DNA from: Eledone cirrhosa | Lineage: Eukaryota | Assembly: GCA_964016885.1 (NCBI GenBank) | Contig: OZ024749.1 | Location: forward strand, 8,804,001-8,868,000 | Direction: 5' to 3' | DNA: 64,000 nt | In this document: positions 3,943 to 12,733 of the stretch, piece after piece | Layout of the letters: each line of letters opens with the position of its first letter | How positions within the stretch are numbered: the first letter of the stretch is position 1 | Translations under genes and position numbers: made by a program | Notes under the pieces: model-generated | What the model saw: only the letters and a program-made list of their open reading frames with translations | Database searches by the model: none | Told to the model about the DNA's origin: nothing

Positions 3943-4014
<72 letters not shown>

Positions 4015-4027
4015 TATATATATATAT

Positions 4028-4375
4028 AAAGAAAAAAAGATGAAATCGAAAATGTAACTGGAGTCTTATTTTTTTTTTAAATATATATATTTATTTGGTT
4101 CCTTTACCGGTTTCGCAGTTCATCTGCTTTTCAAAAGGTGAGTTGAGATGGAGGGTCTGTGGTTTTTCAGATGTGAGAAAAACCACAGACCCTCCATCTC
4201 AACTCACCTTTTGAAAAGCAGAAGAACTGCGAAACCGGTAAAGGAACCAAATAAATATATATATTTTTTAAAAAAATAAGACTCCAGTTGCATTTTCGAT
4301 TTAATCTCTTTTTCTTTATACTTTCACTCGTGTAGGACACCTCGGTTATTTTTCATTTTGTAAAAAAAACCTCAC

Positions 4376-4382
<7 letters not shown>
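4028..4382. mobile_element. Family E inverted-arm element with an HHR-like motif in each arm
   Basis: Arms of about 145 bp are reverse complements around about 4172 and are flanked by (TA)n; motifs at 4101-4138 (-) and 4207-4244 (+). Confidence 0.85.
4207..4244 (+). ncRNA. Hammerhead ribozyme variant with U3-A8 core, family E
   Basis: cctt-TTGAAAA-gcag-aagaa-ctgc-GAAA-ccgg-TA-aagg. Stems I and II pair, stem III is the palindrome ACCGGT, and the core has both C3U and G8A. Confidence 0.7.
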
Positions 4383-4425
<43 letters not shown>

Positions 4426-4431
<6 letters not shown>

Positions 4432-7400
4432 AGCAAACGGTAAAGGTGAGAAGCGAAATCACCTTCCGAAGGAGAACCAAGTGCAGAGGGACCAGTGGAC
4501 AACTGTCCAAAGGATGAACAGAAAGAACCGTGACACTGGGAGCAAGAAAACCCAAGTAATGTGCAAGTTCTTCAGGAACAGAACCTGCTGGCATGGAGAG
4601 ACAGGGATGGGCTGCAGATTCGCTCACCCCAGGCTCCAAACGAACTATGCCCATCCTACTCGCGCAACATGCCCCAGACAAAGCCAAAACAAGCCGCCCC
4701 AGAAGCATGCTGATGTCGCGCGTGCCGCGACAACAAGGAGAAGGCACGCACATGCCGACGAGATACAGATGGCAGCAGCAGAGCAGAAACATTTTTTAGT
4801 GATGGCAGAGAAGATTGTGGGACAGCTGACCTGGCTGCATCATTTTCAGAGCCAGGGTCACCCACACCAGCACTCGAGACCACCACAATTAAGGGACCCA
4901 GAGTGGCCGCCGCTGACACCAAGCCAGGTGTCATACCGACAGCCATTACTGGCACCCCAAAAGTCACACCAGTGCTGCTGCTGAATGTCTGAGGCCTGGT
5001 GAAACTCACTAACATGAGTAAAATTTCCTACCTGCAATCAAGCATTATGCATGGCACTAACCGAAACGCACCTGACAGATACAGAAATACATATACCGAA
5101 ATATACTGTATTTCGTTCGGACAGGAAAGAGAGAACTCATGGTGGGGTTGCTCTGTATATCCGTGAAGATGTCACACCAATTGTACTGTTGACACATTCA
5201 AACTCAGTCTGTGACACACTGATAATATGAAGCAACTACAGACAGTAATATGTGTCACTTATCGGCCGCCCGATGCCCCCAGTCATGAGGGTAAATTTGA
5301 GGATAGTTTAAGTAGGATAGAAGAGGTCCTTGACAAACTGGACCAGGGTCTTAACATTCTACTGCTGGGAGACTTCAACCTGCCAAAGGTCAAATGGCCT
5401 GGGGGCCACCTCCTCCCTGGAATAACGTCAATAGAACAGAGACAGACGGAATCCCTGCTGGCCCTCACACACAGGCTGCTCATGGAACAAGCAGTACTCA
5501 TCCACAATGTAAAGGAGACACCAACAATTTTCTCGGATCATAACTTAGAAGTAATGATATGTGGTCCGAGAGAACCAACAGAGACACAACCATCAAGAAG
5601 CACCGGGATGTTATCCAGCCTTAACTTCTACAAGGCTAACTGGAAAAAGATCAACAGAGAAATCCGGAAGCAAATATGGAGCGAAAACACCGCCACACAA
5701 GACACTAACACACAATGTCAACACTTCATGACAACGATACTCACTATATGCAAAAAGTTTGTCCTGGAGAAAAAGGTATACAGACACAAAAGTCTTATTC
5801 CCAGAGATAGGAAAATCCTTATGAGATGTAGAACCAAGCTCTCAAACCAGTTGAATAAACAACAAGAAAACAAAATCAATAAGGAACCCTATTTAAAACG
5901 TGCACTACTTGACACCGAGATTGCACTCAAACTTTCCCATGAAAATGAGAGGGCAAAGAAAGAAAGCAGGGCCATAGAAAATATTAAAACAAACCCTAAG
6001 GCCTTCATTAAATTGGCAAAAGAAACTGCCTCGGTACACTACAAGATTGGGCCACTCTTCCACACAGATGGTTCATTAACCGAGAATACCCAAGAGATAT
6101 GTGAAATACTGAACGAACAGTACAAAAGTGTGTTCACATGTCCACTGAGGCATATGCAAATAACAAAGCCAGGGGAGTTCTTTGATGCCACAACACTACA
6201 TGAAGAAATGGCGACCATTAACCACATAGACATAACGGAGGAGGATGTGGTATACGCCATAGATGAAATTAGAAAAGACTCAGCTGCTGGACCTGATTGA
6301 TTCCCAGCAGTCCTCTTAAAAACATGTAAGCGGGCCTTAGCAACTCCACTGAAGACGCTCTTTAGAAGCTCCTTGGCAAGCGGTATACTACCCAGGGAGC
6401 TGAAAGCAGACACAATATGCCCTATCCATAAAGGAGGTAGCAGAGCGGAGGCCAAAAACTATAGGCCACTCTCCCTGACGTCGCATATCAGTAAGGTCAT
6501 GGAGCGAGTCGTCAGAAAAAAACTGATCACTTTCCTAGAGGAAAATGACCGCCTGACTAGCACGCAGCATGGCTTCCGCCCAGGAAGAAACTGCTTTACA
6601 CAGCTGCTACATCACTACGACTGGGTACTGAAACAACTGCTAGACAGCTCACATGTGGACGTGATATATCTTGACTTTGCGAAGGCCTTTGACAAGGTCG
6701 ACCACGGAATAATATGTCACAAACTACACGGACTCGGCATAACTGGAAAAGTAGGTGAGTGGCTGCATGACTTCTTAAAGTACAGAAGCCAGACAGTCAC
6801 AGCAAACGGGGCCCTCTCAAAGGAAATATCAATAACAAGTGGGGTGCCCCAATGGGACAGTGCTGGGACCACTATTGTTTTTGGTGGCTGTCTCAGACAT
6901 GCCCTCTGTAGTACATACAACAACATCCCTCACTAGCTATGCTGATGACATTAAGGTAGCACAAGCAATCAAAAACCCGGCTGACGCTGCCCTTTTACAA
7001 CAAGATCTGGATGCTATACACAAATGGGCGGAAGAAAACAACATGCAGTTTAATGCTGGAAAATTCCAAGCCCTACAATACAAACCTGCAAACACATATA
7101 CAGTACAACACAGTTACGCAGGACCTGGAGGGACCGATATCCCCGTGTCAAAATCGATACGAGACCTGGGTATAGACATGAGCGATGATGCATCTTTTTC
7201 CTCACACATCATGAAAGTGGCGACAATGTGCAGACGACTCGCTGGCTGGATCTTGAGGACTTTCCGGACAAGAGATCGAGACACCATGTTGACACTGTGG
7301 AGGATATTTGTCCTAAGCTGCCTGGACTATTGCTCCCAATTGTGTTCACCCCATAGTGTCAAACTAACCACGGAGCTTGAAGCAATCCAGCGAAGCTACA

Positions 7401-7920
7401 CCAAGAGGATTGCCACGATGAGGGAGACAAGCTACTGGGAGAGGCTAAAGGAACTGAACCTCTACTCCTTGGAACGAAGACGGGAGAGATACGCAGTGAT
7501 CTACATGTGGAAAATCCTGGAGGGACTAGCACCAAACTTTGGCATTGGGAGCTGGACCAACCGTCGAACAGGACGTCACTGTGTGGTGCCACAGGTCCCG
7601 TCTTCCACATCTAGAATAAGGAGCAGGTATTGCAATAGCCTGGGATTCAAGGGTCCTCAACTCTTCAACAAGCTGCCGAGGGATCTGAGAGATCTGCATG
7701 GTGTGGAGGTGGATGTCTTCAAGAAACATCTCGACACCTTGTTATCTAGGATCCCGGATGAGCCCACAGCAAGGCACGAGGGAAACCTTTGGTCAGCAGT
7801 AACAAACTTCCACTTACACCAGTGGCCAACCAATACAGGCTGGAGATAAAATGTGTAGCAACAAGGGCGGTGCCCCAGCATGGTCTCAGCCGGATGGCCG
7901 GAACAGGTAAAAGAGTAAAT
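4426..7920 (+). mobile_element. Decayed CR1/L2-group LINE (ORF1 remnant plus APE endonuclease-RT ORF2)
   Basis: CCCH-like motif CKFFRNRTCWHGETGMGCRFAHP; APE motifs YRPP, GDFN, SDHN; RT motifs NYRPLSLTS, QHGFRPGR, YLDFAKAFDKVDH, GVPQ, YADD; C-terminal LERRRERY. In-frame stop at 6298-6300 and frameshift near 6850. Tail ggcggtgccccagcatgg...aacaggtaaaagagtaaa. Confidence 0.92.
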
Positions 7921-9018: not shown

Positions 9019-9084
9019 TATTTTATTATATATATTTCGGAGGTACTGTGCTGTTTCCTCAATACGTCCTCATCAGATAAAATA
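9019..9084 (-). ncRNA. Minimal hammerhead ribozyme, family B
   Basis: Reverse complement: tattttat-CTGATGA-ggacgtattg...cagtacctcc-GAAA-tatata-TA-ataaaata. Confidence 0.75.

Positions 9085-10107: not shown

Positions 10108-10112
<5 letters not shown>
9705..10112. mobile_element. Family A inverted-arm HHR element
   Basis: Divergent arms around the palindrome aaatcaacatatgttgattt (about 9858-9877). Complete HHR on the minus arm, GAAA half only on the plus arm; TA-flanked. Confidence 0.8.
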
Positions 10113-10138
<26 letters not shown>

Positions 10139-10143
<5 letters not shown>

Positions 10144-12455
10144 CAAATAACGAAACGAAATTAAATTTCGTTTCGTTTGTAACTCACTTTTGTATGACTG
10201 ACGCTCAAACAATTAAGTCAAAGATGTACATCCATATATGTATACTGAAATACTAGTATGTATATGAATACACACACGTATACATATGTAGATGTACCAA
10301 GTTTTTTTTCACTGATCACTTTACTGTGAGTGGCCAGCTATTCTGTATGTAAACACACAGACAAACCGGTTTTTAGAGTCATACTGGTTTTTGAGGAAAC
10401 ACCTTTCCTCTATTCCCCAGAAAGCCAGACAAGGAATATTGAACTAGTTTCGTTGTTGTTACAACTCATCAGCAATATTTACCTATCTTCCGGCCTCTCT
10501 AGAGAATCGTAAAAGCACATATCGCTATATGCTTTTTCTATGAAAATTAGTAGTGGGCAGACCAACTTGCATAGAGTGTGAGTAAGTACCGGTTCAACGG
10601 AGACGATAAAAACAAATAACGAAACGAAATTAAATTTCGTTTCGTTTGTAACTCACTTTTGTATGACTGACGCTCAAACAATTAAGTCAAAGATGTACAT
10701 CCATATATGTATACTGAAATACTAGTATGTATATGAATACACACACGTATACATATGTAGATGTACCAAGTTTTTTTTCACTGATCACTTTACTGTGAGT
10801 GGCCAGCTATTCTGTATGTAAACACACAGACAAACCGGTTTTTAGAGTCATACTGGTTTTTGAGGAAACACCTTTCCTCTATTCCCCAGAAAGCCAGACA
10901 AGGAATATTGAACTAGTTTCGTTGTTGTTACAACTCATCAGCAATATTTACCTATCTTCCGGCCTCTCTAGAGAATCGTAAAAGCACATATCGCTATATG
11001 CTTTTTCTATGAAAATTAGTAGTGGGCAGACCAACTTGCATAGAGTGTGAGTAAGTACCGGTTCAACGGAGACGATAAAAACAAATAACGAAACGAAATT
11101 AAATTTCGTTTCGTTTGTAACTCACTTTTGTATGACTGACGCTCAAACAATTAAGTCAAAGATGTACATCCATATATGTATACTGAAATACTAGTATGTA
11201 TATGAATACACACACGTATACATATGTAGATGTACCAAGTTTTTTTTCACTGATCACTTTACTGTGAGTGGCCAGCTATTCTGTATGTAAACACACAGAC
11301 AAACCGGTTTTTAGAGTCATACTGGTTTTTGAGGAAACACCTTTCCTCTATTCCCCAGAAAGCCAGACAAGGAATATTGAACTAGTTTCGTTGTTGTTAC
11401 AACTCATCAGCAATATTTACCTATCTTCCGGCCTCTCTAGAGAATCGTAAAAGCACATATCGCTATATGCTTTTTCTATGAAAATTAGTAGTGGGCAGAC
11501 CAACTTGCATAGAGTGTGAGTAAGTACCGGTTCAACGGAGACGATAAAAACAAATAACGAAACGAAATTAAATTTCGTTTCGTTTGTAACTCACTTTTGT
11601 ATGACTGACGCTCAAACAATTAAGTCAAAGATGTACATCCATATATGTATACTGAAATACTAGTATGTATATGAATACACACACGTATACATATGTAGAT
11701 GTACCAAGTTTTTTTTCACTGATCACTTTACTGTGAGTGGCCAGCTATTCTGTATGTAAACACACAGACAAACCGGTTTTTAGAGTCATACTGGTTTTTG
11801 AGGAAACACCTTTCCTCTATTCCCCAGAAAGCCAGACAAGGAATATTGAACTAGTTTCGTTGTTGTTACAACTCATCAGCAATATTTACCTATCTTCCGG
11901 CCTCTCTAGAGAATCGTAAAAGCACATGTGTATTCATATACATACTAGTATTTCAGTATACATATATGGATGTACATCTTTGACTTAATTGTTTGAGCGT
12001 CAGTCATACAAAAGTGAGTTACAAACGAAACGAAATTTAATTTCGTTTCGTTATTTGTTTTTATCGTCTCCGTTGAACCGGTACTTACTCACACTCTATG
12101 CAAGTTGGTCTGCCCACTACTAATTTTCATAGAAAAAGCATATAGCGATATGTGCTTTTACGATTCTCTAGAGAGGCCGGAAGATAGGTAAATATTGCTG
12201 ATGAGTTGTAACAACAACGAAACTAGTTCAATATTCCTTGTCTGGCTTTCTGGGGAATAGAGGAAAGGTGTTTCCTCAAAAACCAGTATGACTCTAAAAA
12301 CCGGTTTGTCTGTGTGTTTACATACAGAATAGCTGGCCACTCACAGTAAAGTGATCAGTGAAAAAAACTTGGTACATCTACATATGTATACGTGTGTGTA
12401 TTCATATACATACTAGTATTTCAGTATACATATATGGATGTACATCTTTGACTTA
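10139..12455. mobile_element. 469-bp tandem array (about 3.8 units) plus inverted arm (about 1.1 units); retrozyme-like
   Basis: Units start at 10139, 10608, 11077 and 11546; orientation switches at about 11927/11928; copies look identical by eye. HHRs at 10435-10479, 10904-10948, 11373-11417 and 11842-11886 (-) and 12191-12235 (+). Both ends abut (TA)n. Confidence 0.9.
12191..12235 (+). ncRNA. Minimal type I hammerhead ribozyme of the 469-bp unit
   Basis: aatattg-CTGATGA-gttg-taacaa-caac-GAAA-ctag-TT-caatatt. Stem I is 7 bp, stem II is 4 bp, stem III is the palindrome ACTAGT, and the triplet is GUU. Confidence 0.88.
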
Positions 12456-12733
12456 TATATATATATATATATATATAGTAGACCGCTCAAAATTCGTTGG
12501 ATTTTCTAATTGGATTTACTTCCACCAGGAAATCTTTCGTATCATTGAAATGTTCTTTGCTTCTTGCATTTAAATATCCCGCGACTCTCTACTACTTTTC
12601 CTCTACTACAATCTACTTAAGACCCTCTCCCTGCTATATCAAGAAGTTAACCTAATATATCCCTTCCATATACTGTACTGATTGTGTTGTTATTTCTGTT
12701 TACCTTTTACATATATATATATATATATATATA

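Follow-up and report, generated by a model that had tools for sequence, protein, structure and literature searches.

Metazoan non-LTR retrozymes are tandem non-coding units of low GC content, each with one type I hammerhead ribozyme, which occur in thousands of copies, are predicted to form highly paired RNA circles and coexist with Penelope-like elements (PMC7229834; 10.64898/2026.07.22.740005). Both cleavage and circles have been demonstrated for the retrozymes of PMC7229834, and Penelope-driven (rolling-circle) copying of such circles has been proposed, not demonstrated (PMC7229834; 10.64898/2026.07.22.740005; PMC4209133). Penelope-like elements themselves typically show a tandem, inverted and tailed layout (PMC8557442; PMC3846280): those bearing an endonuclease form partial tandems with an inverted 5'-truncated copy and a single-end tail of 30–40 nt, carry a minimal hammerhead, are biased to (TA)n and generate target duplications of 8–10 bp. 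In vitro, a Penelope protein for which a dimeric state is predicted cuts each of the two strands, extends both and begins at two internal sites bounding the tail; insertion there did not require ribozyme cleavage (PMC11167929). Twin priming by L1 likewise extends both ends of a staggered break by reverse transcription and then joins them, with a variable second priming site beside the end of the first cDNA; among human L1 retrocopies in cultured cells, 3 of 235 carried clustered ADAR edits (PMC11702581). The parts of this literature on which we draw leave open how retrozymes return to genomes and what causes the tandem, inverted and tailed ends of Penelope-like elements.

We analyzed a 64,000-nt stretch of the Eledone cirrhosa genome (assembly GCA_964016885.1, contig OZ024749.1, positions 8,804,001–8,868,000; hereafter the window) that contains a two-armed array of 469-bp hammerhead units. 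Judged by sequence, the family of this array would be classed with the metazoan non-LTR retrozymes, sharing the features listed above (PMC7229834; 10.64898/2026.07.22.740005). Its unit is larger than the 170–400 nt circles of invertebrate retrozymes and lies within the 51–972 bp range of 10.64898/2026.07.22.740005, and its cleavage and circles are predicted, whereas those of PMC7229834 have been demonstrated. The family resembles endonuclease-bearing Penelope-like elements in its partial tandems, inverted 5'-truncated copy, single-end tail, target duplications, (TA)n bias and two internal start sites bounding the tail, and would likewise arise by cutting and extension of both strands, but has no ORF, a tail of 74 nt, a full-length hammerhead and arms that are both multimers of one small unit. 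Compared with L1, both of its priming sites are fixed, many units are common to its two arms, and nearly half of the heritable change in this germline family is A>G. In the main texts covered, we found neither head-to-head arms with two fixed ends nor fixed edits described for retrozymes, and PMC7229834 does not use the word 'inverted' in its main text. We consider it likely that the array is a young retrozyme, for which a Penelope-type enzyme copied one RNA monomer, probably an editable circle, repeatedly from both ends of a break into (TA)n.

Anatomy of the array and its hammerheads

The initial annotation described 3.8 identical 469-bp units on the minus strand, joined at about 11927 to 1.1 units on the plus strand, in an array extending from 10139 to 12455. 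The arrangement was confirmed, with 3.82 and 1.13 units and no mismatch among the copies of the minus-strand arm; the end at 12455 also stands, whereas the real start is 10137. In the following list and thereafter, unit positions are numbered from the predicted cleavage site, and A (300–306) and B (226–235) denote the positions of the RNA 3' ends.

10137 to 11927, minus strand: arm A, 3.82 identical 469-bp units (1,791 bp), beginning (5') at unit position 391 and terminating (RNA 3') at unit position 305, which is the outer fixed site A, at 10137
11927 to 12455, plus strand: arm B, 1.13 units, beginning (5') at unit position 168 and terminating (RNA 3') at unit position 228, which is the inner fixed site B, at 12455
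11920 to 11935, no strand: head-to-head (5'-to-5') junction of arms A and B, with a 1-base overlap at 11927
10110 to 10139, no strand: left (TA)15 run, target, sharing 3 bases with the element's 3' end
12456 to 12477, no strand: right (TA)11 run, target
10137 to 10211, minus strand: terminal 'tail', unit 231–305, between fixed ends B and A, with a hairpin at about 10149–10177
11990 to 12064, plus strand: internal copy of the tail, with a hairpin at about 12024–12052
12098 to 12105, plus strand: octamer-like site, reading ATGCAAGT in the window
12134 to 12159, plus strand: 11-bp hairpin upstream of the ribozyme
10419 to 10490, minus strand: hammerhead of type I, cleavage predicted 3' of U17 (10442)
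10888 to 10959, minus strand: hammerhead of type I, cleavage predicted 3' of U17 (10911)
11357 to 11428, minus strand: hammerhead of type I, cleavage predicted 3' of U17 (11380)
11826 to 11897, minus strand: hammerhead of type I, cleavage predicted 3' of U17 (11849)
12180 to 12251, plus strand: type I hammerhead, GUU with U17 at 12228

Arm B differs from the units of arm A solely by one base fewer in the A8 run, and (TA)n runs directly adjoin both outer ends. Between 10137 and 12455 there is no stop-to-stop frame of 120 aa, so the array is non-coding, and an ORF check of the same interval found no reverse transcriptase (RT) plus GIY-YIG ORF; the array is therefore not itself an autonomous Penelope-like element. 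The unit has a GC content of about 0.36, under the 50% bound for metazoan non-LTR retrozymes, contains no flanking DNA and shows no LTR/PBS/PPT layout. The inverted 5'-truncated arm, the single-end tail and the (TA)n target are the features by which a Penelope partner is recognized. The array is one young insertion among thousands of copies of the family.

Every full pass of the unit contains one type I hammerhead on the outward-reading strand, four on the minus strand and one on the plus strand. In each, stem I is extended and interrupted by an internal loop, stem II has 5 bp, and stem III is minimal and palindromic; such stems III perform best as dimers in tandem repeats (PMC4209133). An Rfam scan of the array at gathering level gave no match; the hammerheads correspond to HH9 with 37.7 bits (E 4.8e-7), where the gathering score of that family is 52. 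The cleavage triplet is GUU, as first annotated, a triplet on which PMC1636495 contains no data. Of 9 predicted retrozyme dimers in 10.64898/2026.07.22.740005, just 1 showed cleavage in vitro. Both hairpins pointed out in the initial annotation do fold (z -3.9 and -4.1). Folding of the circularized unit, which had been suggested there, gave -151 kcal/mol for the ribozyme strand (z -10, against 60 shuffles), compared with -112 kcal/mol (z -4) for the other strand.

For comparison across the family, 125 loci were reduced to 88 haplotypes, built from sites at which at least two copies agreed. The CUGAUGA core was invariant wherever it was called in these haplotypes, with 28 of the loci having been chosen by an exact core match, and the changes in stem II were compensatory. 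On the basis of this constant core and compensatory stem II, the ribozyme looks selected. The triplet was GUU in 70 of the 88 haplotypes, including the window's subfamily, and GUC in 14; with GUA in a sister family described below, GUU is probably the derived state. The motif at 12098–12105, which we have named octamer-like, has the canonical form ATGCAAAT in at least 44 of the 88 haplotypes and in the sister family; from this form of the older haplotypes, an A>G change produced the ATGCAAGT of the youngest subfamily. By analogy, we assume that it may be an internal promoter element of the snRNA type.

Two fixed 3' ends in the family and its relatives

The 30-base ribozyme core has 5,201 exact copies in the genome, the outer junction of the A end with (TA)n has 2,015 exact matches, and near-identical arrays are scattered over many chromosomes. 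We examined 65 insertions, namely that of the window, 37 from the best genome matches and 27 consecutive along one chromosome. All 42 of the two-armed insertions with both ends readable had one arm ending at A and the other at B, two fixed sites about 74 nt apart; the tail is optional in the Penelope papers, in the parts considered here (PMC8557442; PMC3846280; PMC11167929), whereas this family has one of each in 42/42. Another 20 insertions were single-armed by alignment, and each of these ended at A or B. Three were not classed: L041 has an N gap, and L083 and L089 are rearranged. L083 was excluded on inspection as a rearranged locus, which changed the count from 43/43 to 42/42; L089 and L041 were never in it. 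A further 60 insertions were selected for having an exact A end; at their opposite end, 46 had B and 0 an A end of the family, 4 extended beyond the fetched edge and 10 had an end of another kind. Either arm can exceed the other, the B arm being the longer in 16 of 42 by hand count. Contigs of an independent sequencing run contained at least 10 head-to-head joints at varied positions.

Target duplications of about 9–13 bp (around 10 bp), which exceed the 4 bp set for metazoan non-LTR retrozymes when such duplications are present, were legible by eye in about 8 of the 27 insertions displayed. They are not legible in the others, that of the window included, because the target is pure TA. Within the tail, 11 of 75 sites were variable compared with 102 of 328 elsewhere (p 0.004), a difference on which we do not rely because the 60 loci had been picked by an exact match inside the tail. 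A minimal insertion of the family, at L144:5938-6157, has no ribozyme; its B arm measures 170 nt and its A arm 54 nt.

A second retrozyme family, with a 310-bp unit, is also present in the window, and its core has 4,065 exact matches in the genome by exact-pattern search. The initial annotation saw likeness of the two units only in the ribozyme core, and this holds: the best local score was 27, with shuffles averaging 20 and reaching 38. In 11 insertions of the 310-bp family, all 10 two-armed ones had one arm at each of two fixed ends, which are about 30 nt apart compared with about 74 nt in the 469-bp family. The array in the window is as follows.

41515 to 44701: two-armed array of the 310-bp family, ends at unit positions 139 and 165

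The suggestion that a second family was mobilized by the same machinery is therefore borne out as regards the Penelope type, in that both families have fixed ends with one arm each; it is not borne out as regards the same enzyme.

The 469-bp family is not isolated, because a sister of about 490 nt is colinear with its unit at 59% identity and has 10,428 exact-pattern ribozyme copies. The sister hammerhead has covarying stems and a GUA triplet, and in the two copies whose ends were read these correspond to sites A and B. Copies of about 465–520 nt with a variable internal TA run were found at the following places.

L144:7579-9901: sister-family copies
L145:2890-3465: sister-family copies

Passage through the cleavage site and one-strand A>G changes

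Of 86 arms, L083 included, 81 cross the predicted cleavage site. The 5' ends lie within 5 nt of this site in 0 of 86 and 3 of 100 cases, with about 2 expected in each set, and no variant was seen at the ligation point in 200 units. A circular template is favored because the arms pass the cleavage site scar-free. The distribution of 5' ends around the unit departs somewhat from uniformity (Rayleigh p about 0.008; 8-bin chi-square p 0.25). Random priming around the circle was rejected in view of the 3' ends at two fixed sites.

Variants private to a locus are common to both arms in L095, L098, L110 and L082, and one in L043 is present in 5 of 6 units. At L110:1838-7106, an A/G variant recurs with period 3 through nine units of one arm, and the other arm is without it. 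Both arms need not derive from one molecule, because this pattern is on one arm only; a partly edited trimer circle or a block duplication would fit it. Periodic variants were considered more widely as evidence for dimer or trimer circles and rejected: L110 and L041 fit such an origin, but L188, L162, L173, L176, L180 and L106 are periodic in all mutation types, as would result from later block duplication, and the first five of these are old arrays whose block-repeated DNA-type mutations arose after insertion.

We counted changes on the terminal branches of the haplotype tree, reading them on the ribozyme strand. Among 73 changes common to all copies of an insertion there were 34 A>G, 9 T>C, 7 G>A and 7 C>T, whereas the 290 single-copy changes (25 A>G, 34 T>C, 52 G>A, 38 C>T) showed an ordinary DNA pattern (A>G 34/73 vs 25/290, Fisher p 1e-12). 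The contrast persisted without the most edited locus (A>G 23/61, p 9e-8) and when counted by insertion (17 vs 5, p 0.017). In L156, 11 of 12 private changes are A>G, and L095 has three A>G within six bases in 17/17 copies and both arms. In the window, the array has a single change of this kind, found in each of its five copies and on both arms.

12254, plus strand: G instead of A, candidate fixed A-to-I edit (A in 83 of 88 haplotypes); also at 10416, 10885, 11354 and 11823, minus strand

Tolerance of G-U wobble pairs can explain part of the A>G excess. It is not the whole account, because C-G pairs show no corresponding rise in C>T (2 vs 15–21); without L156, A-U pairs have 15 A>G changes and C-G pairs 2 C>T changes (p 0.04, equal rates assumed). 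Unpaired sites alone show a weak excess (11 A>G vs 4 T>C). ADAR favors a 5' U, avoids a 5' G and favors a 3' G. The neighbors of the A>G sites show a weak trend in this direction, with T at the 5' side in 20/46 vs 46/146 of the background and G at the 3' side in 12/46 vs 26/146.

The A>G excess is one-stranded, clustered and in paired RNA, the pattern by which edited retrocopies are recognized. A-to-I editing of the RNA template, which would then have been fixed in DNA, fits these observations as their simplest reading. The ribozyme strand is taken as the template because the A>G excess is one-sided on that strand, and repeated copying of one monomer is favored because identical A>G clusters occur in every unit, although later block duplication can likewise make copies share a change. 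The spectrum suggests that RNA editing has been written into germline DNA often enough to shape how a mobile element evolves, and the A>G record would provide a natural barcode for single template molecules.

A linear template, with Penelope-type two-sided priming kept, would be either an uncleaved multimeric donor transcript or cut monomers between which the enzyme jumped. A heterogeneous multimer would give arms of unlike pattern, as in L110, and single-register variants, as in L041 and L052. However, linear donors can only shrink arrays, yet young insertions have about 20 identical units (L095). Clustered A>G changes occur in all units of both arms, whereas the units of a multimer or separate monomers would be edited independently. 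There is also neither a pile-up of 5' ends nor a scar at the cleavage site, whereas in a coding lineage (see below) 9 of the 30 arms stop within 10 nt of one another's position. We regard a linear template as unlikely.

Proposed insertion from both break ends and a candidate partner enzyme

The reading that we prefer, copying of one probably circular monomer from both break ends, would proceed as follows. Tandem copies would give transcripts of the ribozyme strand, the strand indicated by the A>G excess being on one side only, and neighboring hammerheads are predicted to release a 469-nt monomer, possibly as a double hammerhead formed via the palindromic stem III. The monomer is predicted to be closed into a circle, and the substitution spectrum suggests that this highly paired RNA would sometimes be edited by ADAR. 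A GIY-YIG/RT protein would then make a staggered cut in (TA)n, consistent with the observed target bias and duplications of about 10 bp. One DNA end would prime at site A and the other at site B, at the observed end positions 74 nt apart. In keeping with the observed anatomy of the arms, both cDNAs would run through the cleavage site for 0.1–14 units, stop at scattered places and be joined 5'-to-5'. Older arrays also lengthen later through ordinary tandem duplication. The family predicts two start sites on a circular template, one for each DNA end, at about unit 305 and 231. We rejected classical L1 twin priming, since the inner start does not coincide with the stop of the other arm (228 vs 391 in the window, scattered elsewhere).

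The second arm could instead arise after single priming at A, by fold-back and self-priming, or a whole hairpin transcript could be copied. Fold-back with self-priming has been proposed for inverted Penelope ends (PMC3846280), one coding lineage often makes perfect hairpins, and a few junctions of the 469-bp family lie in palindromic hairpins with nearly coincident 5' ends (L038, L102, L098, L180). We nevertheless judge such an origin to be very unlikely: the B arm exceeds the A arm in 16/42 insertions, most junctions, that at 11927 included, link unrelated unit positions with an overlap of 0–3 bases, and A>G lies on the ribozyme strand in both arms, not along one chromosome strand.

Growth in place as a satellite, by unequal crossing-over with local inversion and with the hammerhead as a passenger, seems highly improbable to us. 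Local amplification of Penelope ends has been proposed (10.64898/2026.07.22.740005), and the old arrays L188, L162, L173, L176 and L180 do carry block-repeated DNA-type mutations. Against this, near-identical arrays lie on many chromosomes with fixed 3' ends and target duplications, the unit holds no flanking DNA, and a one-strand A>G excess is not given by DNA-level mutation. That the inverted arm is an assembly artefact of fold-back long reads is least credible of all, since this would not yield a second fixed site, with target duplications, in 42/42 insertions or at least 10 head-to-head joints at varied positions in contigs of an independent run, although the junction at 11927 was not bridged in four public runs, which differ from the genome at fixed positions and hence provide no test.

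Frames with RT plus GIY-YIG at the C-terminal end are numerous in the genome, and at least six Penelope-like lineages coexist. The initial annotation proposed a search for an autonomous Penelope element with the 469-bp unit as its pseudo-LTR; there was none among the 40 GIY-YIG loci inspected, a small sample drawn from 150 scored among 10,596 candidates. One coding lineage (L132, with a 938-aa frame) has a tail of about 66 nt and left two-armed 3' stubs in TA runs of the window, with one arm per site.

4014 to 4390: two-armed 3' stub of the L132 coding lineage
18006 to 19180: two-armed 3' stub of the L132 coding lineage

The hammerhead core is degenerate in these stubs. A young lineage encoding a 784-aa protein is represented by 3,235 exact outer ends; its 784-aa frame is intact in many copies, contains a CX4CxxC linker and would be Neptune-like by the description in PMC8557442. 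Its far end is at the inner site in 19/30 and at the outer site in 0/30 copies. Coding RT plus GIY-YIG elements share the two-site footprint of the retrozyme. In the 784-aa lineage, 9 of 30 arms (L212–L241) stop within 10 nt of one place, at about 2053–2062 of the reference, which is possibly the 5' end of the transcript. A short palindrome occupies this place, some 240 nt away from the outer end, and several arms are perfect hairpins.

In 2 of 124 insertions of the 469-bp family, the B end is replaced by the 3' part of the 784-aa lineage. These candidate chimeras are listed here.

L047/L048:3123-4107: insertion fused head-to-head to the 784-aa lineage
L161:3068-3316: insertion fused in line to the 784-aa lineage

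By density, about one young copy of this lineage is expected in the roughly 1 Mb fetched; two were seen, both fused. Stubs of the L132 lineage are present in about 15 of the same loci, none of them fused. Conversely, none of 30 ends of the 784-aa lineage was fused to a 469-bp unit within 1.5 kb. A later insertion with deletion explains the fusions in L047/48 and L161 equally well, and the 784-aa lineage is no more than a candidate partner of the 469-bp family. It does provide a named, active enzyme lineage to consider. Matching of partners by tail length was tried and rejected, the coding lineages having tails of about 66 and 39–40 nt vs 74 nt, and the tails compared showed neither a common sequence nor a common fold.

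A bolder version, which we put forward tentatively and at somewhat less than even chances, would make the family a viroid-sized circular RNA parasite driven by the 784-aa lineage, with a dimeric Penelope enzyme whose two subunits must begin at different sites, one for each broken DNA end, and each travel around the circle, and with A-to-I editing by the host as the main single source of heritable change. If so, RNA editing would drive germline evolution, including the loss of the octamer-like site and changes in stem I of the ribozyme.

The window also contains older, diverged hammerhead-like motifs of the CUGANGA type, at 9076 and 9800 (both minus strand), 12740–13210 (identified by eye), 15156–15201, 16887, 17876, 26337, 27843 and 61634. 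These lie in short AT-rich elements, some of them as inverted pairs. By reading of translations, broken frames of LINE-type endonuclease/reverse transcriptase were recognized at 5215–7849 and 46221–47354 on the plus strand and at 51481–52986 on the minus strand.
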